Shown: positions 6,097 through 46,412 of the stretch, one piece after another
How the letters are laid out: every line of letters starts with the position of its first letter
How positions within the stretch are numbered: the first letter of the stretch is position 1
IMG/VR virus record: IMGVR_UViG_2541047774_000010
Source: a virus
Taxonomy: Duplodnaviria; Heunggongvirae; Uroviricota; Caudoviricetes
Direction: 5' to 3' (one strand)
Length of the DNA: 47,713 bases
Program-made: the position numbers and the translations under genes
Notes under the pieces: generated by a model
Databases searched by the model: none
What the model saw: only the letters and a program-made list of their open reading frames with translations
What the model was told of the DNA's origin: nothing

Positions 6097-6175
6097 TAAA
6101 AAGAGCGGTACCAGCCGGAAGCAAGTGTACAAACTGGTACCGCCAAAGCAGTGGCTGTTGTGGTGACCGGTGCTG
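6097..6175 (-). ncRNA. dicF: Candidate DicF-like sRNA ending in an intrinsic terminator
   Basis: Minus-strand stem GCGGTACCAG / CTGGTACCGC (plus 6133-6142 and 6106-6115) followed by a U-run; the segment TTTGGCGGTACCAGTTTGTAC matches the DicF core as I recall it (TTTGGCGGTATCAGTTTTAC) at about 18 of 20 positions. Recall-based, not verified. Confidence 0.35.
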
Positions 6176-6584
6176 ATCTCCGGCTTGCGGTTATTTCAGA
6201 CTCTCACGGGTGTTTAATTGCCCCGCCGAACAGCTCTTTTCCGCAATAGCTGCAATGTCTTTCGCGCATCAGCCTGCGCATTCACCACAACGCTGAGAGC
6301 ACTTAGCCAGTTACGGCACCACACTTTGTCGCGGTTCCATAAATGCCCTCATCGTTGCACCCTGGTCTCTTCCCAGGTGTCAAACCGAACCGCCACGCTG
6401 GTTAGGCGTCTTATCAGCATCATCATTGACTTGCACATTCCGGCTACCTGGTTTGTTTGCCCGAGCAAGGAGTGGATTGTCCCCTTTAACGTCCCCAGAC
6501 CGCTAACGACGCATGTGCCATACGCCGTGTTACAACCAAATTTTGTTAGTACCTTGTTTGTTGGTCTGGAAAGAAAGATAAAAT

Positions 6585-7733: not shown

Positions 7734-8277
7734 GCATCACTGGAAAGTGGAAAAACAGCCTGAGTGGTACGTGAAAGCTGTCAGAAAAACTATCGCGGCG
7801 TTGCCGGGGGGTTACGCTGAAGCTGCTGAGTGGCTGGATGTAACAGAGAACGCTTTATTCAACCGCCTTCGTGCAGATGGCGATCAGATTTTCCCGCTGG
7901 GATGGGCAATGATTTTACAGCGCGCTGCTGGCACTCACTACATTGCGGATGCTGTCGCACAGTCTGCTGGTGGGGTGTTTGTATCGCTTCCTGAAATTGA
8001 GGAAGTAGAGAACGCCGATATAAACCAGCGCCTGCTGGAAGTCATCGAACAAATCGGGAGTTACTCAAAGCAGATTCGTTCGGCAATCGAAGATGGGGTA
8101 GTGGAGCCACACGAGCAGACAGCAATTAATGATGAGTTGTATCTGTCGATTTCGAAGCTCCAGGAGCATGCGGCACTGGTCTACAAAATTTTCTGCGCTC
8201 CAGAAAAGAGTGACGCCCGCGAGTGTGCAGCTCCGGGCGTCGTGGCGTTTTGTGTCTGTGGAGAAACTAACGCATGA
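7726..8277 (+). CDS. Early regulatory protein in the CII position (YdaT/CII-like); GTG start
   Basis: 183-aa ORF beginning at a GTG with AGGAG 8 nt upstream, overlapping the cro stop; the call rests mainly on position. Confidence 0.45.
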   Translation: MGKHHWKVEKQPEWYVKAVRKTIAALPGGYAEAAEWLDVTENALFNRLRADGDQIFPLGWAMILQRAAGTHYIADAVAQSAGGVFVSLPEIEEVENADINQRLLEVIEQIGSYSKQIRSAIEDGVVEPHEQTAINDELYLSISKLQEHAALVYKIFCAPEKSDARECAAPGVVAFCVCGETNA

Positions 8278-8602
8278 ACAGTTTAACGGCAAATAACCGT
8301 TTGTCGCAACAGCTGGTGGTCAGCGTCTCTGAACACCTGTTGTTACGGCATGAATGCAGATTACCAAATCACCAGGCTGTAAGTAACCACAGAGAACTTT
8401 ACCTGACTGTGGGGGGCGAGTTGTGCAGGAACTTAACCGCTGGTTTCGTGACGGAAGAGGGCTTTATGTTCATGTTATTCGTTGGGAACCAGAAACACAG
8501 CGCGTTATCTATCTTCGCAAAGACTACCCGCATGAGTGCTTTAGTCCTTTGTGGAAATTCAGGCGTGATTTTGTTGAGTGTGACGGACCACCAACACATT
8601 GA
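8274..8602 (+). pseudogene. Small early gene split by a G6 homopolymer (frame disrupted in this sequence)
   Basis: ATG 8274 with good RBS (GGAGA); frame 0 runs through G6 at 8411-8416 into non-coding-looking sequence; the protein-like continuation VQELNRWFRDGRGLYVHVIRWEPETQRVIYLRKDYPHECFSPLWKFRRDFVECDGPPTH (8423-8602) lies in the +1 frame. Confidence 0.4.
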
Positions 8603-8687
8603 TTCTGCCATTCCGGGACGTTACACTGTTCAGGCACCTTATAAAACGGGTGCCGGGCGTGGAAACCCGGAATTCACCAAAGCGCAC

Positions 8688-8711
8688 AACCGCGCTCTTG
8701 CGGTTTTTTTG
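8688..8711 (+). terminator. Intrinsic terminator (tR1-like position)
   Basis: AACCGC-GCTCTT-GCGGTT hairpin followed by T7; it lies inside the track's 8274..9425 ORF, arguing that region is not coding. Confidence 0.45.
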
Positions 8712-8879
8712 TGTCATGAGCAGCATTACGCCCAAATTATGGTGGGGCGTGCAGGGCCAACTTCGGTTGGGCCGGGTTCTTTGGTGACCGGTATTTCCAC
8801 CCCTGTACGTCTCACCACCAATAAGGTCGTGGAAAGCCTTGGTGGTGAGTTATTAAAAATCACCAAAGAGGCTGCCATC

Positions 8880-9425
8880 ATGGCTACGATCCCAACCCTC
8901 ACTCAACCTGAAATTGCCATCGTTGATGGTCAGGTTGTTACTTCATCCCTGGCTGTTGCCAACTTCTTCTCCAAACGTCATGACGATGTACTGAAAAAGA
9001 TCCGCACGCTTGAATGCTCAGCATCATTCACTGCCCGCAATTTTTCGGTGAGTGATTACACTGATTGCACAGGTCGCAAACTTCATTGCTACCAAATCAC
9101 ACGCGATGGTTTTGCGTTTCTTGCTATGGGTTTCACGGGTAAACGTGCTGCCCAGTTCAAAGAGGCATATATCAATGCCTTTAACCAGATGGAGAAACAG
9201 CTTTCAAAGCCCGCTGTACCGAGCGACGTTGCACATAACGCCAGCGTTCTCTGTTCCTACATTTCATCAATTCATCAGGTCTGGCTGCAGCAGCTTTATC
9301 CTATGTTGGCAAAAGCCGAATCTCCGCTGGCTGTTAGCTTATATGATTATATTAATGATGCTTCGGCGCTGGCCTGCCTCATAAATTTGTCGCTGAACCC
9401 TTCAGAGGTAAGGGGGCGCAAATGA
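8880..9425 (+). CDS. rha: Rha-family phage regulatory protein (antirepressor-like)
   Basis: 181 aa from MATIPTLTQPEIAIVDGQVVTSS with RBS AAGAGG; motif GFAFLAMGFTGKRAAQFKEAYINAFNQME is typical of Phage_pRha. Confidence 0.8.
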   Translation: MATIPTLTQPEIAIVDGQVVTSSLAVANFFSKRHDDVLKKIRTLECSASFTARNFSVSDYTDCTGRKLHCYQITRDGFAFLAMGFTGKRAAQFKEAYINAFNQMEKQLSKPAVPSDVAHNASVLCSYISSIHQVWLQQLYPMLAKAESPLAVSLYDYINDASALACLINLSLNPSEVRGRK

Positions 9426-12482: not shown

Positions 12483-13430
12483 GTGACCGTGAGAGCACTA
12501 CTGACCCCTGAAATTGCCCCGCGTATGGGGATTGTATTGTTCAGGCCAGGTTCAGAGCTGATGCCCCTGTTTATGCAGGGGCGTGTCCTGCTGGAGCCTG
12601 AGCCGGAACGTTATTCATCTTTCGCCAGTGGTGCCGTTCCGGCGGCATCACAACCGCTGGCGGATGATCCTGCCGTTCGGGCCGTGTTCCGCAATGAGGC
12701 AGTGATCCGTCGTGCTGGTGGCGTGGAATGTCTTGAAAGCTGGTTACTTCGTGAAAAGGGCTGTCAGTGGCCTCATTCCGACTGGCACAGCGAGAACATG
12801 ACCACAATGCGGCACGCTCCGGGAGCAATTCGTCTGTGCTGGCACTGCGATAACCAGCTGCGTGACCAGTTCACGGAACGGCTGGAATCAATGGCAACGG
12901 ATAACTGTGCCCGCTGGGTGTTGTCTGTCGTGCGTCGGGATCTCGGTTTTGATGACAGTCACGTTGTGACAATGCCGGAACTGTGCTGGTGGCTGGTTCG
13001 TAATGATTTGGCGGATGCCTTACCGGAAAGTGCAGCCCGTAAGGCACTGAGATTACCGAAGCCTGTTGTGCCATCTGTCACCCGGGAAAGTGACCTTGTG
13101 CCTTCGGTTCCTGCCACCAGCATCATCCAGGATAAAGCGAAAAAGGTGCTGGCGCTGAAAGTGGATCCGGAGTCGCCGGAGTCTTTTATGTTACGCCCCA
13201 AACGTCGCCGCTGGGTTAATGAAAAGTACACGCGCTGGGTTAAGACGCAGCCGTGCGCATGTTGTGGAAAGCCAGCTGATGATCCCCACCACCTGATAGG
13301 CCACGGTCAGGGTGGAATGGGTACAAAAGCGCATGATCTCTTTGTGTTGCCTTTGTGCAGAAAGCATCACGACGAGCTGCATGCGGATACCGTGACATTT
13401 GAAGAGAAGTATGGCTCCCAACTGGAGTAA
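12483..13430 (+). CDS. ydfU: DUF968-family protein, YdfU-like, C-terminally truncated by IS4
   Basis: 315-aa ORF with Cys/His cluster (CACCGKPADDPHHL...CRKHHDELH); the stop TAA at 13428-13430 is supplied by the first bases of IS4; the original last ~20 codons sit after the IS (14854-14917). Confidence 0.75.
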   Translation: MTVRALLTPEIAPRMGIVLFRPGSELMPLFMQGRVLLEPEPERYSSFASGAVPAASQPLADDPAVRAVFRNEAVIRRAGGVECLESWLLREKGCQWPHSDWHSENMTTMRHAPGAIRLCWHCDNQLRDQFTERLESMATDNCARWVLSVVRRDLGFDDSHVVTMPELCWWLVRNDLADALPESAARKALRLPKPVVPSVTRESDLVPSVPATSIIQDKAKKVLALKVDPESPESFMLRPKRRRWVNEKYTRWVKTQPCACCGKPADDPHHLIGHGQGGMGTKAHDLFVLPLCRKHHDELHADTVTFEEKYGSQLE

Positions 13431-14853
13431 TGCCAGTCAGTTAAGCAACTGACTGGCTCTTTTTCGGGGCTGTGGGGTATTTCCAGGGCCTCTCCTTTAC
13501 CACTCTCGGGAAGGCCCTTTCCCTTCTTGTCGGTAATTTCACAAGTTGTCCCATACTTGCAAGATCGTGCATCAGCTCCGGTATACGTCCCGGTGAAGCG
13601 CCCTGCAATGTCATCAGCATTCTCATCACCATTCCGCATGATTCTGAGAAACTCAGTTGATTCGGCCAGTAACCTTTCAGATGTTCCGCCATTTTAATCA
13701 TCTGATATCTCACCAGATTATAAGCCAGTAAGACACCCCACAGCTCTTGCTCCACAAGCTCCGGCTTTTTACTTCTCAGCGTCAGCCTGCTCAGTTGCAT
13801 CGTCTGTTTTATCTCCCTGTATCCCAGTTCGATTTCCCAGCGATGACTGTACAGATCCGCCATTTCTCCTCCGGGGAAGCGCATGGCGTCCGTCATCGAC
13901 GTCAGCAGATGGCAGACTTTTCCTTTGCGCGTCACGGTCAGCAGGCGGGCTGTCACCTCATTTCCCAGTCCCGGCCACTTTTTTCGTGCCTGCGGGCTGG
14001 TTTTCAGCTTCACCAGATGATCGCCTTTACCCAGTTTTCTGATCTCTTCATATTGCGCTCCCTTTCTGAGAGGGATCATCCAGTGGCGGTGTTCTCCCGC
14101 CAGGCTCCAGGCATTTAACAGTCCCAGTGAGTAATAACCTTTGTCCATTAACGTCAGAGTGTTATCGCCGGTTTGTTCTATAAGTTGCTCAGCAAGCTCA
14201 TTTTCGCTGTTCTTCATCGTGCCGAAGGCTGCAGCCGTCAGCAGATGGCTGGTCAGTTCCATCTGGCAGACCATTTTGACCTGCGGGTAGAGCGCCGGGT
14301 TCCCGGCATGTGTCTGGCGGGGGAAGGCTGCATCGTTCTCTGGTGTATCCGGTGTGCGCCAGAACACACCATCGATGGCCAGCAGGGTCAGGCCGCACCA
14401 TTGCGGATGCGGCGTGGCGTTATGCCAGAGCTGCGCTGTTTTCGTGAACACGCGGCGGACAGCCTCACTTCCCAAGCGCTGGCGGGCCTGAATAACGGCA
14501 CTGGGGGCAACGAAGGGGCGATTGCCCGGCAGCATGATGTCCAGGCGATTCACAATCTGGTGAAGAGGTTCTTTACGCTCAAGCGCCATGCCAACAATAC
14601 ACCAGACCATCATTTCGAGGGGAAGACGGCGCTTGCGTAGCGTTACAGTACCTGATTCGGCAAGGCAACGAGAGATGAGTTCGGGGTCGAGGTAATCCCC
14701 CAGAGAAGTCAGTGGGTTACGCAGAGAATCGTAACGGGATACCAAATCAAGGGCCTGTCCAATGTGCATAAAAAAATCCGGAAACGAGTGAGCGTTTCCG
14801 GATTCTTACACAGCCACTGGATCGGTCAACTGATCCTTAACTGATCGGCATTA
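13428..14853 (-). mobile_element. IS4 insertion sequence, complete, with 13-bp target site duplication
   Basis: 1426 bp, the canonical IS4 length; terminal inverted repeats TAATGCCAGTCAGTTAAGC (left) and reverse complement of TAATGCCGATCAGTTAAGG (right); flanking direct repeats CTCCCAACTGGAG at 13415-13427 and 14854-14866. Confidence 0.92.
13441..14769 (-). CDS. insG: IS4 transposase
   Basis: 442-aa ORF matching the IS4 transposase in length and sequence as recalled. Confidence 0.93.
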
Positions 14854-14930
14854 CTCCCAACTGGAGCTGATATTTCGTTTTATCGATCGTGCGCTGGCAA
14901 TTGGCGTACTGGCGTAAGTGGAGAACGAGC

Positions 14931-15683
14931 ATGAACCTTGAAGCCTTACCAAAATATTACTCCCCAAAATCTCCAAAATTGAGTGATGCCGCACCGGCGA
15001 CAGGCTCAGGTGGTTTAACGATTACGGATGTGATGGCTGCGCAGGGGATGGTGCAGTCGAAAGCACCGCTTGGGTTTGCCTTATTCCTGGCAAAAGCTGG
15101 CGTTCAGGATCCTCAGTTTGCGATTGAAGGTCTGCTCAATTACGCGATGGCACTGGATAACCCGACATTGAACAAATTGAGTGAAGAAATCCGGTTACAG
15201 ATCATCCCTTACCTTGTGAGTTTTGCCTTTGCTGATTATTCCAGGTCTGCGGCAAGTAAGGCTCGCTGTGAGCCTTGTGCTGGTACTGGATTTCATAATG
15301 TATTGCGCGAAGTGGTGAAATACTCCAGAAGCGGGGAGTCTGTTATCAAGGAAGAGTGGGTGAAGGAACTATGTCAGCATTGTCATGGTAAGGGAGAAGT
15401 CAGCACAGCGTGCAGAGGGTGTAAGGGTAAAGGTATTGTCCTGGATGAAAAAAGGACCCGGCTTCATGGCGCGCCTGTTTATAAGATTTGTGGGCGTTGC
15501 AATGGAAACCGGTTTAGTCGTTTACCAACGACACTGGCGCGGCGTCATGTCCAGAAGCTGGTACCAGACCTGACTGATTATCAGTGGTACAAAGGATATG
15601 CAGATGTCATTGATAAACTGGTTACAAAGTGCTGGCAGGAAGAAGCATATGCTGAGGTGCAATTAAGAAAAGTGACGAGATAA
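14931..15683 (+). CDS. Late-gene antiterminator Q-like protein (zinc-binding)
   Basis: Start MNLEALPKYY with RBS GTGGAGAA; three CxxCxGxG-type motifs (CEPCAGTGF, CQHCHGKGEV, CRGCKGKG); sits between the nin-like genes and a strong promoter/terminator pair. Confidence 0.6.
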   Translation: MNLEALPKYYSPKSPKLSDAAPATGSGGLTITDVMAAQGMVQSKAPLGFALFLAKAGVQDPQFAIEGLLNYAMALDNPTLNKLSEEIRLQIIPYLVSFAFADYSRSAASKARCEPCAGTGFHNVLREVVKYSRSGESVIKEEWVKELCQHCHGKGEVSTACRGCKGKGIVLDEKRTRLHGAPVYKICGRCNGNRFSRLPTTLARRHVQKLVPDLTDYQWYKGYADVIDKLVTKCWQEEAYAEVQLRKVTR

Positions 15684-16311: not shown

Positions 16312-16611
16312 AAAAATTCCTTAATACTGATAACTGGGCGCACTATACACACGTTCCTGAAGAAAGCTATAGTTTTTTGATGGGGTTGAAGATGGCTGGA
16401 TGTCTAAAATAAACATTGCTTCATATGTTCAACTATGCGTTAATGATTGCGTCGGTTTGAAGAACAGACGATATACGAAGTAGTTTACTAAAGCAGTTCT
16501 CATTTCAGGTGTTATTCACTTATTCCTTCTTTGAGTCTCTCCAATTAAGTACGAAGTCGTTTCTGTTATACAAGCCATTTATGCCGAAAGGCTCAAGTTA
16601 AGGAATGTAGA

Positions 16612-16827
16612 ATGTCAAATAAAATGACTGGTTTAGTAAAATGGTTTAACGCTGATAAAGGTTTTGGCTTTATTTCTCCTGTTGATGGTAGTAAAGATGT
16701 GTTTGTGCATTTTTCTGCGATTCAGAATGATAATTTTCGAACCTTATTTGAAGGTCAAAAGGTTACCTTCTCTGTAGAGAGTGGTGCTAAAGGTCCTGCA
16801 GCAGCAAATGTCATAATTACTGATTAA
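16612..16827 (+). CDS. cspB: Cold shock protein CspB-like
   Basis: 71 aa [38 protein letters not shown], a CspA-family protein matching CspB as recalled. Confidence 0.88.
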
Positions 16828-17108
16828 AATTCATAGTTTGTCTGTATACGATAACGAAGAAGGCTGATGCCTGAGTGGAGATACAGACAGAGTGGTGAAT
16901 ATTGGATCTCTTTAATAAATAGTAAGGAGGTCCAATACATGAAACAATGGCCAGCATATTTGGCAATAACTTAATCAGGAAAAGTATGCTAACCATTGTG
17001 GTGAAGTGCAGGTTTGCTGCATGAATAGTTTTACAGCAGAAGCTAACTGCTGGCATAGCAAAACAAAGTGCGTAAGTGGATGACTCCCACAAAAAGTACC
17101 ACAATATT

Positions 17109-17361: not shown

Positions 17362-17579
17362 AGGCTTTTCCTGTATAAATGGCCGTATACAGTACACTAA
17401 ATATGAAAACATATCTCGTATTATTATTTAATATATGATTTTCTTTTAAAATAATTACCCACATTTTTAATGTGTCTGTTTTTTAGCGCCGTTGAGAACA
17501 ACGTTTGCTATAAAAACTAACCCATAGACTCCGATCTTTTCAAACATATTGCACCATCTGTGTACATCGGGGTGAGGAT

Positions 17580-17795
17580 ATGAAATCAATGGATAAGTTA
17601 ACAACAGGTATCGCCTATGGCACATCGGCTGGTAATGCTGGTTTCTGGGCATTGCAGTTACTCGATAAAGTAACTCCGTCACAGTGGGCTGCAATCGGTG
17701 TGCTGGGTAGTCTGGTTTTTGGCCTGCTGACGTATCTGACAAACCTTTATTTCAAGATTAAAGAAGACAGGCGTAAGGTTGCGAGAAGAGAGTAA
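17580..17795 (+). CDS. Holin, EssD/EssQ-like
   Basis: 71 aa [26 protein letters not shown]...[33 protein letters not shown] matches the E. coli prophage holin EssD/EssQ as recalled; RBS GGGGTGAGGA. Confidence 0.88.
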
Positions 17796-17799
17796 TCCA

Positions 17800-18351
17800 A
17801 TGACACAAGACTATGAACTGGTTGTGAAAGGAGTCCGCAATTTTGAGAATAAAGTGGCGGTAACTGTAGCCTTACGGGACAAAAAACGCTTTGACGGTGA
17901 AATTTTTGACCTGGACATCTCGCTGGACCGTGTTGAAGGTGCCGCGCTGGAGTTTTATGAGGCAGCAGCCAGAATGAGAATCAGACAGGTATTCCTGGAT
18001 GTTGCTGCCGGGTTATGTGTAGGGGATGAGCAGTCGCCGGAAAAGCGCCCCATAATTTTAGAGGCGCAGAATGTGTGGATAACCTACAAAGGAAAGCTAC
18101 CGGGAAGAATTACTGGTTCTCTGAAGACGCCACCGACGGCATTGCGGTCAGAAAAAGATGATATTGAATCGCCCATTGAAAAACTGGAGGGCAGCGTCGC
18201 TGATCTGAATAAAAAATTGTCGGTGCTGATCCCTTCTGAAGATGAAAAAAAACGCCGCGATGAGCAGTTTGCGGCGTTTTACGATTATTGCATTGAAGTT
18301 ACTCGCAGGAATTTTGTGAAGATTTTTGAGGAGGGTAAATCTCTTCAGTAA
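17800..18351 (+). CDS. ydfR: YdfR-like protein (N-terminal similarity), with extended C-terminus
   Basis: Start MTQDYELVVKGVRNFENKV matches YdfR as recalled; this ORF is longer (183 aa) than the recalled K-12 YdfR (about 103 aa). Confidence 0.65.
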   Translation: MTQDYELVVKGVRNFENKVAVTVALRDKKRFDGEIFDLDISLDRVEGAALEFYEAAARMRIRQVFLDVAAGLCVGDEQSPEKRPIILEAQNVWITYKGKLPGRITGSLKTPPTALRSEKDDIESPIEKLEGSVADLNKKLSVLIPSEDEKKRRDEQFAAFYDYCIEVTRRNFVKIFEEGKSLQ

Positions 18352-18559
18352 GCTTAATGGCGGACGCTGCAATTAATTCAGGAAGGTCCGCAAGGTCATC
18401 TGTCAGTGGATATGATGAAAAATCGGCGGCAGTTCTGTTAAGAAGCGCTTTAACTAATTCCTTTTCCTTCTCCGGCAACAAGTTGATTAGAGCTACGACT
18501 GCTTGCCTGAGTGCGATTAAATCAGCAAAAGTTTGTTTTGGTAGATTTGTGTAATCCAT
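18299..18559 (-). CDS. Hypothetical protein encoded antisense within the lysis cassette
   Basis: 86 aa from MDYTNLPKQTF with strong RBS GAGGTGA 5 nt upstream; acidic, protein-like composition; overlaps the 3' end of the ydfR-like ORF on the opposite strand. Confidence 0.35.
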   Translation of the reverse strand: MDYTNLPKQTFADLIALRQAVVALINLLPEKEKELVKALLNRTAADFSSYPLTDDLADLPELIAASAIKLTEEIYPPQKSSQNSCE

Positions 18560-18672
18560 AGTCACCTCTGTGTTTATCAGATTGACATCCTCCTCCCGCC
18601 AGTGCCCATCACTGGTGAGGTAAGATTTAACATATCCGGGGATTTGAAGCCGATAAATCCTGATAAATATCC

Positions 18673-19700
<1,028 letters not shown>

Positions 19701-20060
19701 ATTAATATTAAATCGGATTATTTTTAGCGCTGAATGTGAAATTTAAATAAAAAGGACTCTTCCATGAGTCAAAATCCTTGAAATCTTAAGGGTAAGATAA
19801 AAGGTCATTAGACAGAATGACACGTTTTATTAATAAATAAAGCTATTGTTTCATTCGTGTGTTTTTCTTTACAAAAGTAATCCTTGCTATGGTTGGTTAA
19901 TCATGCGTTAATGGTGTTCTGGTTTGTTACAAAATTATCTGAAGCAGTCATTGTTATAATTTTATTATTTGTACCTCTTGAGATCTCCTTGTTGGTTTTT
20001 CTCTCTGATATTTTTTTTCGGACCATTCTGCCCAAGGGCTAACTTCTTCAAAAGGTAATA

Positions 20061-20276
20061 ATGATGTCTAACAAAATGACTGGTTTAGTGAAATGGTTTA
20101 ACCCTGAAAAAGGTTTTGGTTTCATCACGCCGAAAGATGGTAGCAAAGATGTGTTTGTCCATTTCTCAGTTATTCAGAGCAACGATTTCAAAACGTTAAC
20201 TGAGAATCAGGAAGTCGAATTTGGTATTGAGAACGGACCTAAAGGCCCCGCGGCTGTTCATGTAGTGGCACTTTGA
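20061..20276 (+). CDS. cspI: Cold shock protein CspI-like
   Basis: [70 protein letters not shown] matches CspI as recalled. Confidence 0.88.
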
Positions 20277-20480
20277 GGTAGAAAATATTACAAACCATAT
20301 TCACTTTAGATGCCCGTGTTGCCATGGTTCTCAGTATAGAACATCATCTTTTGATGTTTCTGACAGGAATCCTTTCGGGGCAAAATGTATCTTTTGTAAA
20401 TCAATGATGATTACATTTGATAATATTTCACAATACTTAAATGTTAGCCGTCTGTCGTTAGATTTAAGAAAGTGAAAATG

Positions 20481-20505
20481 AAGGCTCCTTCGGGAGCTTT
20501 TTTGC
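20481..20505 (+). terminator. Intrinsic terminator
   Basis: GGCTCC-TTCG-GGAGC hairpin followed by TTTTTTG. Confidence 0.55.
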
Positions 20506-20547
20506 TTAGTGTCTAGTCGATGGATACTCACATATTACGGTAACATT

Positions 20548-20778
20548 ATGAAAAAAATAATAGTTTTTTTTAACTCTGAACCAGCAATGGTAGTGCCAGT
20601 GATGACCGGAGTTAACACCATCATGCGTGAATATCCAAATGGCGAAACAACACACCTCACTGTAATGGCTGCAGGGTTTCCATCTCTGACCGGAGATCAT
20701 AAAGTCATTTATGTAGCAGCGGATCGACATGTAACTTCAGAAGAAATTCTGGAAGCAGCAATGAGACTCTTGAATTGA
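20548..20778 (+). CDS. Hypothetical small protein
   Basis: 76 aa from MKKIIVFFNSEPA; no family recognised. Confidence 0.4.
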   Translation: MKKIIVFFNSEPAMVVPVMTGVNTIMREYPNGETTHLTVMAAGFPSLTGDHKVIYVAADRHVTSEEILEAAMRLLN

Positions 20779-20950
20779 TTTGATTCTAATGCATTGATAA
20801 TAAATGATAATCATCTTTATCTGTTTGTGTGAAATTTAGACCGTCGTATGTTGATTATTGCGATGTTTCATCTTATCTTTTATACGTTTGCTCCATATAA
20901 TTGACACTACTGTGTACCAGGAAAGTCATAACAGACTAAAAGAGGAAATG

Positions 20951-21124
20951 ATGAACATTGAAGAGTTAAAAACAAAAACAGAAGCAGATATTTCTGAATA
21001 TATAACAAAAAAAATCATTGAGCTTAAGAAAAAGACCGGGAAAGAAGTTACCAGTATCCAGTTTACTGCACGGGAAAAAATGACTGGTCTTGAAAGCTAT
21101 GATATCAAGATTGATTTAATCTAG
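20951..21124 (+). CDS. gnsB: GnsA/GnsB-family small protein
   Basis: 57 aa MNIEELKTKTEADISEYITKKIIELKKKTGKEVTSIQFTAREKMTGLESYDIKIDLI matches GnsB as recalled; RBS AAGAGGAA. Confidence 0.8.
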   Translation: MNIEELKTKTEADISEYITKKIIELKKKTGKEVTSIQFTAREKMTGLESYDIKIDLI

Positions 21125-21419
21125 TATGTTTATAGTATTAGCATCAATTTCTCATCAGATGCTATTCAACAATACAAATTACCCATAAACCTCGTTTTTA
21201 CGGGGTTTTGTTATATTTAAACATTACCGAATAGATATAAATCTCGATTGTCGATGGTATTGGTTGTGTGACAATACCTAGTCTTTCCGGTATGCCTGAA
21301 GAGAATACAAACGACAGATTATGTAAGGGAAACGCGCTGAAACTTTCACTCTTTCATGCTGAGTGATTTGACGTTATATTTTTAGCCGCAAGTGAAGAGC
21401 AAACGCATGGAGCGACAAA

Positions 21420-21626
21420 ATGCATAAAGATCAATACACTGATGCCCCCTCCCAGGAGCAGGTTCGTGTAAAAACTATGCTTAATAGCACCATTTCGATG
21501 GGTTACCCGGATGTTGTAATTGCATGTATAGAACATCAAGTATCTCTGGAAGCATTCAGGGCAATTGAGGCCGCGTTAGTAAAGCACGATAAGAATACGA
21601 AGGATTATTCCCTGGTGGTTGACTGA
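21420..21626 (+). CDS. Hypothetical protein, homolog of the small lambda ORF near cos
   Basis: 68 aa; ...[38 protein letters not shown]...DYSLVVD matches the lambda right-end ORF as recalled, and the downstream DNA continues lambda-like up to the IS3 insertion. Confidence 0.6.
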
Positions 21627-21779
21627 TCACCATAACTGCTAACCATTCTGACCATTTCACAAGTGACAGAGTCAATATCGTATTCTGTCACTGTCAGGCT
21701 AATACAGTACTGCAATTCAACTACAGCAATGCCTCGTATTTAGGTGAATTGATCCTACCCACGTAATATGGACACAGGC

Positions 21780-22646
21780 CTAAGCGAGGTTCTGGTTTTC
21801 AAATTGTTCCGGACTGAGGCCGCCACACCAACTGTGCCGCCGCCACCGATTGTAATCACATTCGATATAATTAAACACCGTTGCCCGCATTATTTCCCGG
21901 CTGATAAAGTGTTCTCCATGGATACATTCCACTTTCAGCGAATGAAAGAAGCTTTCCACGCAGGCATTATCGTAGCAGCAACCTTTTGCGCTCATACTTC
22001 CACGCAGATTATGCCGCTTCAGTTGCGCCTGATAATCTGCTGAACAGTACTGGCCTCCACGGTCCGTGTGAACGATAACGTTCCGGGGCCTCTTACGCCG
22101 CCACAGCGCCATCTGCAGGGCATCGCAGGCCAGTTGCGCCGTCATGCGTGGCGACATTGACCAGCCAATAACGGCACGTGACCACAGGTCAATGACCACT
22201 GCCAGATACAGCCAGCCTTCATCTGTACGTAAGTACGTGATGTCTCCTGCCCACTTCTGGTTCGGGCCACTGGCGTAAAAATCCTGCTCCAACAGATTTT
22301 CTGACACAGGCAGGCCGTGTGCGCGGTAGCTGACCGGGCTGAACTTCCGGGAGGCCTTTGCCCTCAGTCCCTGACGGCGCAGGCTTGCCGCCACGGTTTT
22401 TACGTTAAAGGGGTAACCCTGAGCACGCAGTTCATCCGTCAGGCGTGGGGCACCGTAACGCTGTTTTGACCGGGTAAAAGCCGCGAGGACAACGCTGTCG
22501 CAGTGTTGGCGGAACTGCTGACGCGTGCTTATCCTTGTCCGCCGCTGACACCACGTATACCAGCCGCTGCGGGCCACCCGGAGCACGCGGCACATTGCTT
22601 TGATGCTGAACTCAGCCTGATGTTTTTCAATAAAGACATACTTCAT
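21780..22646 (-). CDS. insF: IS3 transposase OrfB (expressed as OrfAB by -1 frameshift)
   Basis: 288 aa [21 protein letters not shown]..., matching IS3 InsF as recalled. Confidence 0.93.
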
Positions 22647-22942
22647 TTCAGACGATTCGCAAAGTATGTCGCGGCCTTTTGGAGGATAGCCAGCTCTTCA
22701 TCCCGTTCTGCCAGCTGGCGTTTGAGACGTGCAATCTCGGTAGACATCTCCAGTTCACGTTCAGAAGACGTCTGCTGATTTTGCTGTTTACTGCGCCAGT
22801 TGTAGAGCTGTGATTCATACAGGCTGAGTTCACGGGCTGCGGCAGTAACACCGATGCGTTCAGCAAGCTTCAGGGCTTCACTGCGAAATTCAGGCGAATG
22901 CTGTTTACGGGGTTTTTTACTGGTTGATACTGTTTTTGTCAT
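22643..22942 (-). CDS. insE: IS3 transposase OrfA
   Basis: 99 aa from [19 protein letters not shown], matching IS3 InsE as recalled; overlaps orfB at a frameshift window. Confidence 0.9.
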
Positions 22943-23239
22943 GTGAGTCACCTCTGACTGAGAGTTTACTCACTTAGCCGCGTGTCCACTATTGCTGGGT
23001 AAGATCAAATTTACAATATCGTCCAGTTCGGATGCCGGCTGCATTTCTGAAGATAAGGCATTTCGGTTCGCGTATTTTCCCCTCATGCTCGTCAGTCCTG
23101 CGCGTAGTAAGAAACAGGACACTCACACTAATTTGTGTGGGCATGCTGTGATGTCCTTCTGAATTATCCCCACGCCATTATGTAAAGCTCTGTTTCAGAT
23201 GCTCGTCACGGTTGTCAGGCTGTCGGGTCCTCCCTGGGG

Positions 23240-23275
23240 GGGGCCCTGCCACGGGGCGGGAGCGTCGCGGAAAAA
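23240..23275. other. Putative cos site (cosN-like) upstream of the terminase genes
   Basis: ACGGGGCGGGAGCGTCGCGG resembles lambda cosN ACGGGGCGGCGACCTCGCGG as recalled; about 170 bp upstream of the small terminase start. Confidence 0.5.
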
Positions 23276-23439
23276 GGCTAGTTTTTGCATTTTTATCGGC
23301 CACCATCATCTTTGCATCTTATTGATTATTAATGGTTGTTTGTTTTTTGTATGTCGAATTGAGTGTTTTTTGTTCGACATCGAACGCGTTTTCTTAAAGT
23401 TGTTCGCACGATGCATGTTTAAAGCTCTCCGGAGGAAAT

Positions 23440-23931
23440 ATGGATCATGAGTTGAAAAACCTGGTGCTGAATATTAATCAACTGGCGGCTTTATCTGGTC
23501 TGCACCGCCAGACTGTCGTGGCAAGACTGAAAAACATTCGTCCCGCTGGTGGACATGACAAACTCAAGCTATACCGCTTGACCGATATTCTGACTGAATT
23601 TATGGGGTTACCACCGCCGGTTGCTGAGGGCGAAATGGATCCACATGAACGCAAAGCCTGGTATCAGTCTGAACGTGAGCGTCTTAAGTTCGAACAGGAA
23701 ACGGCACAACTCATTCCGGCCAGTGATGTCAGACGGGAGTTTGCCATCTGGGCAAAAGCGGTCGTGCAGGTGCTGGAGACATTACCGGATATTCTGGAAC
23801 GTGACTGCGGCCTGCAGCCTGCCGCTGTGAGCCGTGTTCAGTCCATTATTGATGATCTGCGCGATCAGATAGCCCTGCGGGTGACCGAAGCAGGTGCGGA
23901 TGATGAGGAGGAATTACAGCAGGAGGAGTAA
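23440..23931 (+). CDS. Terminase small subunit (Nu1-position, HTH at N-terminus)
   Basis: 163 aa; N-terminal HTH-like INQLAALSGLHRQTVVARLKN; immediately upstream of, and overlapping, the large terminase gene. Confidence 0.7.
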   Translation: MDHELKNLVLNINQLAALSGLHRQTVVARLKNIRPAGGHDKLKLYRLTDILTEFMGLPPPVAEGEMDPHERKAWYQSERERLKFEQETAQLIPASDVRREFAIWAKAVVQVLETLPDILERDCGLQPAAVSRVQSIIDDLRDQIALRVTEAGADDEEELQQEE

Positions 23932-26033
23932 TGCTGAATCAGGAAACCGCAAAGGCAGCACGAACCGATTCAGGTTATATCCTTCGCGCACCGAGACGAA
24001 TGCGGGTTGCTGATGCCGTTGCTCAGTATATGCGGGTGCCCATGGGGGCCGGGAACTCAGTCCCGTGGGATCCGCTGGTGGCACCGTATGTTATTGAGCC
24101 GATGAACTGCCTGGCCTCGCGTGAATACGACGCAGTGATATTTGTTGGCCCGGCACGAACTGGCAAGACTATCGGCCTGATTGACGGCTGGGTGATTTAC
24201 AACGTGATTTGCGATCCTGCTGATATGCTGATCATTCAGATGACGGAGGAAAAAGCCCGCGAACACTCCAAAAAACGACTTGCCAGAACGTTTCGCGTCA
24301 GCCCGGAAGTGGTCAGTCGCCTGAGTCCGAACAAAAATGACAACAACGTTTATGACAGAACATTCCTTGCTGGCAACTACCTGAAAATCGGCTGGCCGTC
24401 AGTCAATATCATGTCCTCATCAGATTATAAATGCGTGGCGCTGACGGATTATGACCGTTTTCCGGAAGATATTGATGGCGAGGGGGATGCCTTCTCTCTT
24501 GCCTCAAAACGTACCACCACATTTATGTCCAGTGGTATGACGCTGGTGGAGAGTTCCCCCGGCAGGGATGTGAAGGATGTGAAATGGCGACGGACTTCAC
24601 CGCATGAGGCTCCACCAACCACGGGGATACTGTCGCTCTATAACCGTGGCGATCGCCGTCGCTGGTACTGGCCCTGTCCACACTGTGGTGAGTATTTTCA
24701 GCCCTGCGGCGATGTGGTTGCTGGTTTCCGTGATATTGCCGATCCCGTGCTGGCAAGTGAGGCGGCTTATATTCAGTGTCCTTCCTGTTCAGGACGGATT
24801 ATGCCTGAACAAAAACGTGAGCTGAACGGACGTGGGGTCTGGTTGCGGGATGGTGAATCCATCAATGCGGATGGCAGTCGTTATGGTGATCCCCGACGCT
24901 CACGTATTGCGTCATTCTGGATGGAGGGTCCGGCAGCTGCTTACCAGACACTCTCGCAACTCGTTTACAAACTGCTTGCTGCAGAACAGGAATACGAGAC
25001 AACCGGAAGTGAAGAAACACTCAAGACGGTTATCAATACCGACTGGGGATTACCTTATCTTCCCCGTGCCAGCATGGAGCAACGAAAAAGTGAACTGCTT
25101 GAGCAGCGGGCAGAGCCAGTTCCTTCCCGCAGTGTGCCGGATGGCGTTAATTTCCTGGTGGCGACAGTTGATGTGCAGGCGGGACGTCATCGCCGTTTTG
25201 TGGTTCAGGTAACGGGCTATGGCAGCCGTGGCGAACGCTGGATTATTGATCGTTACAACATCACGCAGTCATTGCGCGGTGACAGCGACGGGGAGAGCCA
25301 GCGAATTGATCCGGCCAGCTATCCGGAAGACTGGGATGTCCTGCTGACGGATGTTTTTCATAAAAGCTGGCCGCTGGCCTCCGATCCTTCTCAACAAATG
25401 CGACTGATGGCAATGGCGGTGGACTCCGGCGGTGAAGACGGAGTCACTGATAATGCCTATAAATTCTGGCGTCGTTGCCGTCGTGATGGCCTTGGTAAAC
25501 GTATTTACCTGTTTAAGGGCGACAGCATCCGGCGCGCAAAACTGATCACCCGTACATTCCCTGATAACACCGGACGAACGGGCCGACGGGCGCAGGCCGC
25601 AGGTGATGTACCGCTCTGGCTTCTTCAGACGGATGCCCTGAAAGACCGGGTGAATAACGCGTTATGGCGTGACTCGCCAGGTCCCGGCTATGTGCATTTC
25701 CCTGACTGGCTGGGGAGCTGGTTTTACGACGAACTGACGTATGAAGAGCGGAGCAGTGACGGGAAATGGAGTAAGCCGGGTCGCGGTGCCAACGAAGCTT
25801 TTGACCTGATGGTGTATGCCGAGGCTCTGGTCATTCTGCATGGATACGAAAAGATCCGCTGGCCGGATGCACCGGAGTGGGCGAGCCGGGAAACCTGGCT
25901 GGAGTGTGTCCCGGACAGTACCGAACCGTCACCCACACCGGAACCGGTATCCACGCCTGTTAAAAAACAAAAACGGAAGAAAACAGTAACTGACGATGTT
26001 AACCCCTGGCTGACTTCCGGAGGATGGTTATGA
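23931..26033 (+). CDS. A: Terminase large subunit, lambda gpA family
   Basis: 700 aa; Walker A-like GPARTGKT; gpA-family size and conserved C-terminal nuclease region. Confidence 0.92.
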   Translation: MLNQETAKAARTDSGYILRAPRRMRVADAVAQYMRVPMGAGNSVPWDPLVAPYVIEPMNCLASREYDAVIFVGPARTGKTIGLIDGWVIYNVICDPADMLIIQMTEEKAREHSKKRLARTFRVSPEVVSRLSPNKNDNNVYDRTFLAGNYLKIGWPSVNIMSSSDYKCVALTDYDRFPEDIDGEGDAFSLASKRTTTFMSSGMTLVESSPGRDVKDVKWRRTSPHEAPPTTGILSLYNRGDRRRWYWPCPHCGEYFQPCGDVVAGFRDIADPVLASEAAYIQCPSCSGRIMPEQKRELNGRGVWLRDGESINADGSRYGDPRRSRIASFWMEGPAAAYQTLSQLVYKLLAAEQEYETTGSEETLKTVINTDWGLPYLPRASMEQRKSELLEQRAEPVPSRSVPDGVNFLVATVDVQAGRHRRFVVQVTGYGSRGERWIIDRYNITQSLRGDSDGESQRIDPASYPEDWDVLLTDVFHKSWPLASDPSQQMRLMAMAVDSGGEDGVTDNAYKFWRRCRRDGLGKRIYLFKGDSIRRAKLITRTFPDNTGRTGRRAQAAGDVPLWLLQTDALKDRVNNALWRDSPGPGYVHFPDWLGSWFYDELTYEERSSDGKWSKPGRGANEAFDLMVYAEALVILHGYEKIRWPDAPEWASRETWLECVPDSTEPSPTPEPVSTPVKKQKRKKTVTDDVNPWLTSGGWL

Positions 26034-45837: not shown

Positions 45838-46412
45838 TGGCATTCAGAATGAGTGAACAACCACGGACCATAAAAATTTATAATCTGCTGGCCGGAACTA
45901 ATGAATTTATTGGTGAAGGTGACGCATATATTCCGCCTCATACAGGTCTGCCAGCAAACAGTACCGATATTGCACCGCCAGATATTCCGGCAGGCTTCGT
46001 GGCTGTTTTCAACAGTGATGAGGCATCGTGGCATCTCGTTGAAGACCATCGGGGTAAAACGGTTTATGACGTAGCGTCAGGGGACGCGTTATTTATTTCT
46101 GAACTCGGTCCGTTACCGGAAAATGTTACCTGGTTATCGCCGGAAGGGGAGTTTCAGAAGTGGAACGGCACAGCCTGGGTGAAAGATGCAGAAGCAGAAA
46201 AACTGTTCCGGATCCGGGAGGCGGAAGAAACAAAAAACAGCCTGATGCAGGTAGCCAGTGAGCATATTGCGCCGCTTCAGGATGCTGCAGATCTGGAAAT
46301 TGCAACGGAGGAAGAAATCTCGTTGCTGGAAGCATGGAAAAAGTATCGGGTATTGCTGAACCGTGTTGATACGTCAACTGCACAGGATATTGAATGGCCA
46401 GCACTGCCGTAG
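45837..46412 (+). CDS. tfa: Tail fibre assembly protein Tfa
   Basis: 191 aa, translationally coupled to stf (TAATG); typical Tfa N-terminus ([36 protein letters not shown]). Confidence 0.85.

Follow-up and report, generated by a model that had tools for sequence, protein, structure and literature searches.

The window, meaning the whole 47,713-nt stretch of the IMG/VR virus record IMGVR_UViG_2541047774_000010, carries a lambdoid prophage in which a complete copy of the insertion sequence (IS) IS3 lies upstream of the cohesive end site (cos). On the + strand, the late genes were ordered Q antiterminator, holin, endolysin, Rz-like gene, cspI, ymcF, ynfN, gnsB and a ybcW-like open reading frame (ORF), followed by IS3 in the antisense orientation, cos and the terminase small subunit gene (terS). 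The initial annotation had placed IS3 on the path of the late transcript, downstream of the lysis and accessory genes and upstream of the terminase, with the transposase antisense, and this placement was confirmed. The arrangement very probably arose by simple transposition, with a non-coding spacer of the prophage as the target of IS3. No gene, cos element or terminase gene was interrupted by IS3. An IS3 insertion at this site is already known from public genomes, including those of E. coli B laboratory strains.

The element was assigned to IS3 on its length and sequence identity, its TGATC inverted repeats, a 3-bp target-site duplication, and the presence of orfA and orfB together with an A AAA G motif (Table 1). 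The window copy starts with TGATCCTACCCACG and finishes with GCTGGGTAAGATCA. The terminal inverted repeats (21749-21788 and 22969-23008) are 40 nt in length and 73% complementary, with TGATC termini. The TGATCC end (the right inverted repeat) points toward the ybcW-like ORF, and the TGATCT end (the left inverted repeat, beside the transposase start) points toward cos. Among the 5,426 complete E. coli genomes used for comparison, an IS3 match spanning 80% or more of the element was present in 4,529 records. The best matches showed 99.8% identity over all 1258 bases and were annotated as "IS3-like element IS3 family transposase"; no exact match to the window copy was present among the 5,426 genomes. 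Further complete IS3 copies in the fetched loci were likewise 1258 bp in length with 3-bp duplications, which in two of these copies were ATA and TTG. The length of exactly 1258 bp and the intactness of IS3 given in the initial annotation held, the latter at the level of the ORFs.

Elements of the IS3 family transpose by a copy-and-paste mechanism and produce the OrfAB transposase through a programmed frameshift (PMC11708052). In the window copy, orfB overlaps orfA, and reading through the A AAA G slippery motif gives an OrfAB product of 387 amino acids (aa). The N51 copy of IS3 (E. coli N51, described below) carries the label "programmed frameshift" in its annotation by the Prokaryotic Genome Annotation Pipeline (PGAP). 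The window copy thus shares with IS3 of E. coli (IS3 group) its 1258-bp length, imperfect repeats of ~39-40 bp, the 3-bp duplication and the frameshifted orfA/orfB pair, and differs by three substitutions directly 3' of the slippery site. These substitutions (22652, 22655 and 22661; 15-24 nt 3' of the slippery site) are private to the window, being absent from five other copies of the same insertion. All three fall at third-codon positions in orfA, where one gives OrfA K95N, and in the OrfAB linker the residues R, A and P are replaced by C, S and S. The downstream hairpin was predicted to be weaker with the private substitutions (-13.2 kcal/mol, from -18.0 kcal/mol). Both orfA and orfB are still open despite the three changes, and the ends of the element are intact.

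The element is flanked by a directly repeated AAT. Removal of IS3 and one AAT gave an ungapped 1732-bp alignment to phage HannyBb at 99.4% identity. The match to mEp460_ev081 was likewise ungapped. A single AAT is present in the empty site, ...TTTAGGTGAATTTACAATATCG..., of HannyBb, mEp460_ev081 and the JNEC-KY175 prophage. A repeat of only 3 bp would be weak evidence on its own, but with these empty sites for comparison it is not a chance match, and the 3-bp AAT duplication proposed in the initial annotation was borne out.

The last gene before the insertion is the 68-aa ybcW-like ORF, the Tritos homologue of which is annotated as YbcW; a Pfam search of this ORF gave no match. On the other side, the PGAP annotation of JNEC-KY175 contains no coding sequence in the equivalent of the spacer between IS3 and cos. 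The annotation of HannyBb includes a 48-aa ORF that begins exactly at the IS3 target (GTG AAT...) and is open in 94 of 96 relatives. This ORF was rejected as a disrupted gene, as its variable sites numbered 3, 5 and 3 by codon position, with no third-position bias. An Rfam scan gave no match between 20323 and 46179, so no known RNA lies at the insertion site or at cos.

Table 1. Positions of IS3, its target, and the surrounding prophage features in the window.
Feature	Position	Strand	Basis
att core, 42 bp, inside prfC first codons	806-847		Comparison with K-12 yjjG-prfC
IS4, complete, 1426 bp (13-bp duplication CTCCCAACTGGAG at 13415-13427 and 14854-14866)	13428-14853	- (transposase)	
Q antiterminator	14889-15683	+	Pfam Antiterm
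ybcW/lambda-p79-like accessory ORF, 68 aa	21420-21626	+	ORF list; lambda-aligned block
Left AAT target-site duplication	21747-21749		Sequence; single AAT in empty sites
IS3, complete, 1258 bp	21750-23007	-	Full-length 99.8% identity to annotated IS3 copies; inverted repeats
IS3 orfB, 288 aa, rve DDE integrase core, frame open	21780-22646	-	Pfam rve, rve_2, HTH_21
IS3 orfA, 99 aa, frame open	22643-22942	-	ORF list; Pfam HTH_Tnp_1
A AAA G -1 frameshift motif	22676-22680	-	Sequence; OrfAB translation; folding
Right AAT target-site duplication	23008-23010		Sequence; single AAT in empty sites
Non-coding spacer, IS3 to cos	23011-23224		Lambda homology only in first 22 bp
cosQ-like heptamer GGGTCCT	23225-23231	+	Sequence comparison with lambda
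cosN cohesive end GGGCGGGAGCGT	23254-23265	+	Tritos end, cdtI start and lambda alignment
Terminase small subunit, DUF1441 family, intact	23440-23931	+	ORF list; Pfam
Terminase large subunit, 700 aa, GpA ATPase and nuclease domains, intact	23931-26033	+	ORF list; Pfam

The cos nick was located between 23253 and 23254, 246 bp to the right of the IS3 end. This agrees with the distance of about 250 bp upstream of cos given in the initial annotation, and cos itself is uninterrupted. The end of the phage Tritos record, ...CTGCCACG (in a longer reading, ...GGGTCCTCCCGGTGGGGGCCCCTGCCACG), aligns to window position 23253, and the start of the phage cdtI record, GGGCGGGAGCGTCGCGG (in a longer reading, GGGCGGGAGCGTCGCGGAAAAAGGC), aligns to position 23254. 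At the same junction lambda reads ...GGTTACG/GGGCGGCGACCTCGCGG, or, with more of the context, ...ACGGGTCCTTTCCGGTGATCCGACAGGTTACG/GGGCGGCGACCTCGCGG. The lambda cohesive end GGGCGGCGACCT and the window sequence GGGCGGGAGCGT are identical at 8 of 12 positions, and the ACG and CGCGG flanks are identical. The heptamer GGGTCCT, which we take to be the lambda cosQ, lies 217 bp from the IS3 end, and its distance to the nick is 22 nt in the window versus 23 nt in lambda. The segment between the heptamer and the nick (23232-23253) includes a run of eight G residues (23236-23243) and is variable among relatives; it reads CCCGGTGGGGGCCCCTGCCACG in Tritos and CCCAGTGGGGGTCCCTGCCACG in the commonest IMG/VR allele. 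The small subunit has the same protein accession (WP_000349509.1) in N51 and JNEC-KY175.

The initial annotation had also described lambda-like DNA on both sides of the element. When IS3 was removed and the remaining sequence was aligned to the right end of lambda, the lambda segment 47579-48090 matched window 21254-21749 and 23011-23032 at 81-83% identity, so that this description held for the left flank and the first 22 bp of the right flank and failed for the rest of the right flank. In lambda coordinates the insertion point falls at approximately 48068, which leaves 434 bp to the end of the genome. The aligned block holds the 68-aa ORF, a homologue of lambdap79/YbcW. From 23033 to the cosQ-like heptamer, the alignment contained no lambda similarity; the remaining ~220 bp before cos share with lambda only GGGTCCT and the cosN core, and the stretch from cosN to terS likewise bears no relation to lambda. 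The likeness to the lambda right end thus consists of the p79/ybcW homologue with ~145 bp downstream, the near-equal cosQ spacing, the partial cosN match and a large subunit of the GpA family. In contrast to lambda, the window has a spacer to cos that is unrelated in sequence and ~190 bp shorter, the cohesive end GGGCGGGAGCGT rather than that of lambda, and a DUF1441 small subunit instead of Nu1. By these comparisons, the flanks are lambda-like only in the sense of lambdoid, and the phage is distinct from lambda.

The 24.7 kb to the right of IS3, which form the structural half of the prophage, were 97.3% identical to mEp460_ev081 over 91% of their length, and 95-97% identical to mEp460, Tritos, cdtI, HannyBb and PhiR phages. 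Judged from this match, the host prophage is an mEp460-type lambdoid phage. It shares with the mEp460-like phages (mEp460, mEp460_ev081, Tritos, cdtI, HannyBb and PhiR47_1) the terminase, portal, protease-capsid fusion and tail genes at 95-97% identity, as well as the cos end sequence and the accessory-gene cluster upstream of cos. The packaging, head and tail module and the cos end are thus both of the mEp460 kind. None of the mEp460-like isolates carries IS3 or IS4, however, and the early/immunity region and the prfC integration module of the window differ from theirs. The window was 99.8-99.96% identical to a region of E. coli N51, an isolate from cerebrospinal fluid, which carries the same prophage with the same IS3 junction; the arrangement differed only by the IS4 of the window.

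Comparison with K-12 placed the prophage between yjjG and prfC; its integration point falls within the first codons of prfC, where a 42-bp attachment (att) core is duplicated. An exact k-mer search for an att site between the prophage ends gave no match. The prophage provides a replacement 5' end for prfC. The N51 prophage measures 46,564 bp from core to core, and that of the window strain was estimated at 48,003 bp, or ~45.3 kb without either IS. The head, tail and terminase ORFs all have lengths equal to those in the N51 and mEp460_ev081 annotations. Apart from IS3, the only defects were a ydfR pseudogene, which is common to relatives, and a DUF968 gene cut by IS4.

In the complete E. coli genomes, the left IS3 junction was present in 17 and the right junction in 10, while the empty site was present in 935, as well as in 94 IMG/VR contigs. 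There were 0 matches to the occupied junction among species-representative genomes. Two metagenome contigs contained the junction, both with a Qin-type left flank and both ending within the IS; one was 100% identical to REL606 over 4.7 kb. All of the inspected occupied sites other than that of N51 lie in the defective Qin prophage at ydfJ/rspAB.

The Qin copies of IS3 (REL606, EC931, PK8276, BKQ37E and ATCC 8739) have the same nucleotide position, orientation and left junction as the window, and EC931, PK8276 and BKQ37E also have the same right junction and AAT duplication. Window 17552-25452 aligned to the Qin prophages of EC931 and PK8276 at 97.4%, with IS3 in register and identical junctions. 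The gene neighbours are shared as well (cspI, ymcF, ynfN, gnsB, the ybcW-like ORF, IS3, cos and a DUF1441 terS), and the late-region content of Qin, from holin to the terminase large subunit gene (terL) and including IS3 at this position, is found in the window. Unlike the window prophage, which lies at prfC and has all of its structural genes, Qin lies at ydfJ/rspAB, has a different integrase and early region, is deleted, and has a different flank haplotype; the Qin integration site, integrase and dicB early region are not those of the window. In REL606 (E. coli B; IS3 at 20301-21558 of the fetched locus L004), cos through J has been deleted from the edge of IS3, so that its right end directly adjoins a 5'-truncated J, with no AAT on that side. 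EC931 (L006) and PK8276 (L007) retain both junctions, cos and terS, and carry a terL::J fusion. The BKQ37E Qin shows further decay, with damage by IS2, IS1 and ISEc52.

The insertion in the lineage of the window and N51 looks recent, since the sister prophage of JNEC-KY175 at the same prfC locus has an empty target with flanks that are 100% (2 kb left) and 99.95% (2 kb right) identical. The terS, terL and portal proteins of JNEC-KY175 have the same accessions as those of N51. The sister prophage has a different immunity region. The IS3 variants were considered as a marker of origin and dropped, as one shared polymorphic site (position 45) was too little to distinguish a de novo insertion from a transfer from Qin.

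Differences between the flanks of the window and Qin-type insertions are found left of the element at distances of 41 and 39 bp (21708 and 21710) and right of it at 59 and 63 bp (23066 and 23070). At these positions, the empty sites of the 94 IMG/VR contigs (loci L013-L106) carried the haplotypes TC/GG (57 contigs), CA/GT (28) and TC/GT (6). The favoured explanation, based on these haplotypes, is that IS3 was moved between flank haplotypes by recombination rather than inserted twice. This reading needs crossovers no further than 38 bp from the element on one side and 62 bp on the other. Lambdoid prophages are highly mosaic and recombine constantly, and phage recombinases use homology arms of 40-60 bp.

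The alternative with the most in its favour is that the window and Qin insertions were independent, the spacer 246 bp upstream of cosN being a sequence-specific hot spot for IS3 that was hit twice, with nucleotide and orientation the same. The IS3-bearing alleles do occur on two flank haplotypes, each of which also exists as an empty site, and the window prophage and Qin occupy different loci with different integrases. The target TGAATTTAC also agrees with TGATCTTAC, the IS3 end, in 7 of 9 positions, as read from the sequence. The few IS3 copies at hand, however, had no common target sequence, the recombinant-looking haplotype TC/GT was present across a 100-bp interval in 6 of the 94 contigs, and the right flank of BKQ37E is a mosaic. 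We know of no strong target specificity for IS3, and a literature search on its target preference found no usable account. On this balance, independent insertion is unlikely. The broader notion of a hot spot hit twice, perhaps by virtue of the target TGAATTTAC mimicking the IS3 end, or of an infectious IS3-carrying phage ferrying the element between strains, is similarly tentative. Recombination of a single insertion between flank haplotypes is therefore retained as the favoured account.

With regard to the late genes, IS3 alone is probably neutral or mildly costly to the prophage. A Q-antiterminated late transcript would cross 1.26 kb of antisense IS3 before the terminase genes, and tolerance of the element would be expected, with the Q-modified polymerase reading passively through it. 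The initial annotation had instead predicted that IS3, together with IS4, cripples late gene expression, a prediction that the sequence analysis did not support for IS3. On that reading IS3 could be polar on the late operon, in which case late transcripts would end in the antisense element, the terminase and morphogenesis genes would be under-expressed, and no particles would form. In favour of polarity, the element does separate the lysis cassette from terS on the late strand, its transposase gene runs antisense, and it adds 1.26 kb of untranslated RNA, a classic Rho substrate. Against it, the terminator scan found no terminator-like site on the + strand within the element, and a Q antiterminator is encoded. 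The scan did find terminator-like hairpins on the late path at 21187-21208 and 23371-23386, the second of which lies within DNA common to phage isolates at 97.6%. Given these hairpins and the accessory genes, the late transcript would already be antiterminated across ~2.5 kb of accessory DNA, and this arrangement is common to related isolates.

A comparable situation has been described in O157:H7, in which DNase-protected DNA from induced cultures yielded complete Stx2a phage genomes with one to three copies of IS629, an IS3-family element, including one downstream of stx2, and in which IS copy number drives diversity within a phage type (PMC4587872). The likeness lies in the presence of an IS3-family element in a lambdoid phage, including in the Q-dependent late region downstream of stx2; the difference lies in the source of the Stx2a genomes, which came from DNase-protected particles after induction. 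Packaged phages with IS3-family elements in the late operon speak against polarity (PMC4587872). Taken with the features of the locus, the evidence leans against a loss of late expression caused by IS3, which appears mechanistically doubtful, and polarity of the kind described is improbable.

Several points nonetheless weigh against a neutral or mildly costly IS3. The occupied junction was found in 0 of the IMG/VR contigs and 0 of the phage isolates in the phage collection, a result that would suit polarity and that fits either rarity or a fitness cost. The intact structural ORFs were rejected as proof that IS3 is harmless, as decay would not yet show after so recent an insertion, and they are therefore uninformative on selection after the insertion. 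By the textbook account of lambda, polymerase modified by Q resists Rho-dependent termination in RNA that is not translated; the same behaviour would be presumed for the Q family encoded here. IS3 would enlarge the phage genome by 1,261 bp, to ~46.6 kb, or to ~48.0 kb with IS4, and the latter is 2% above the longest sequenced relative with the same head genes (cdtI, 47,021 bp). Harm through packaging, with IS3 (+1,261 bp) and IS4 (+1,439 bp) taking the cos-to-cos genome above the capsid limit, is nevertheless highly improbable: although sequenced relatives whose head and terminase genes are ~96-97% identical span 42.9 to 47.0 kb and the window prophage exceeds them at its estimated length, the excess over cdtI is small, IS3 alone (N51, 46.6 kb) stays within the observed range, and lambda packages up to ~105% of its own genome length.

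A more plausible lesion of late expression than IS3 is the complete IS4 upstream of Q, for which the position and predicted structure of the element argue. IS4 is absent from N51 and JNEC-KY175. It shortens the DUF968 gene from 329 to 315 codons, with loss of the C-terminal codons, and lies 77 bp ahead of the start codon that the N51 annotation gives for Q. About 1.5 kb before Q, IS4 also contributes a terminator-like hairpin (13432-13457) to the sense strand of the early transcript, with an 11-bp stem followed by a T-run.

The insertion itself has little importance beyond annotation, as the element is a standard IS3 and the allele had already been sequenced. Elements of the IS3 family have been associated with adjacent deletions (PMC11708052). 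In the proposed course of events, IS3 would serve both as portable homology and as a site of transposase action at which deletions begin, with the Qin prophage of E. coli B as the example, and the element would have been the nucleus of the REL606-type deletion. The window represents the stage before deletion, with IS3 within a complete prophage, and together with the Qin remnants of REL606, EC931, PK8276 and BKQ37E it forms a small series of IS-seeded prophage decay. N51 (with IS3) and JNEC-KY175 (without it) constitute a natural near-isogenic pair for the effect of a late-path IS on a lambdoid phage.

Several RNA features were noted elsewhere in the window. The primer sequence for sRNA-17, an ArcA-regulated small RNA (sRNA) of the meningitis strain RS218, matched exactly at 6105-6130, within a locus of approximately 6100-6290 on the + strand. 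In RS218, sRNA-17 has been reported in an mEp460-like prophage (PMC7719688), and by the primer match the window carries the same prophage-borne sRNA-17 locus. Interruption of this sRNA by IS3 was ruled out, as the primer sequence maps to the early region. Rfam matches were obtained for isrK (8634-8710, + strand, 67.9 bits) and C4 antisense RNA (8735-8822, + strand, 83.6 bits), both of which fall in the 5' part of an ORF (8274-9425) annotated as a Rha family regulator of 383 aa. This ORF may have been called too long, running over an RNA region that controls an antirepressor, as in phage P1. Thermoregulator 5' leaders of the cspA type were found at 16451-16890 and 19917-20322, before the cspB-like and cspI cold-shock genes, and a match to the IS009 RNA family was located at 46180-46378, within the tail-fibre assembly gene.

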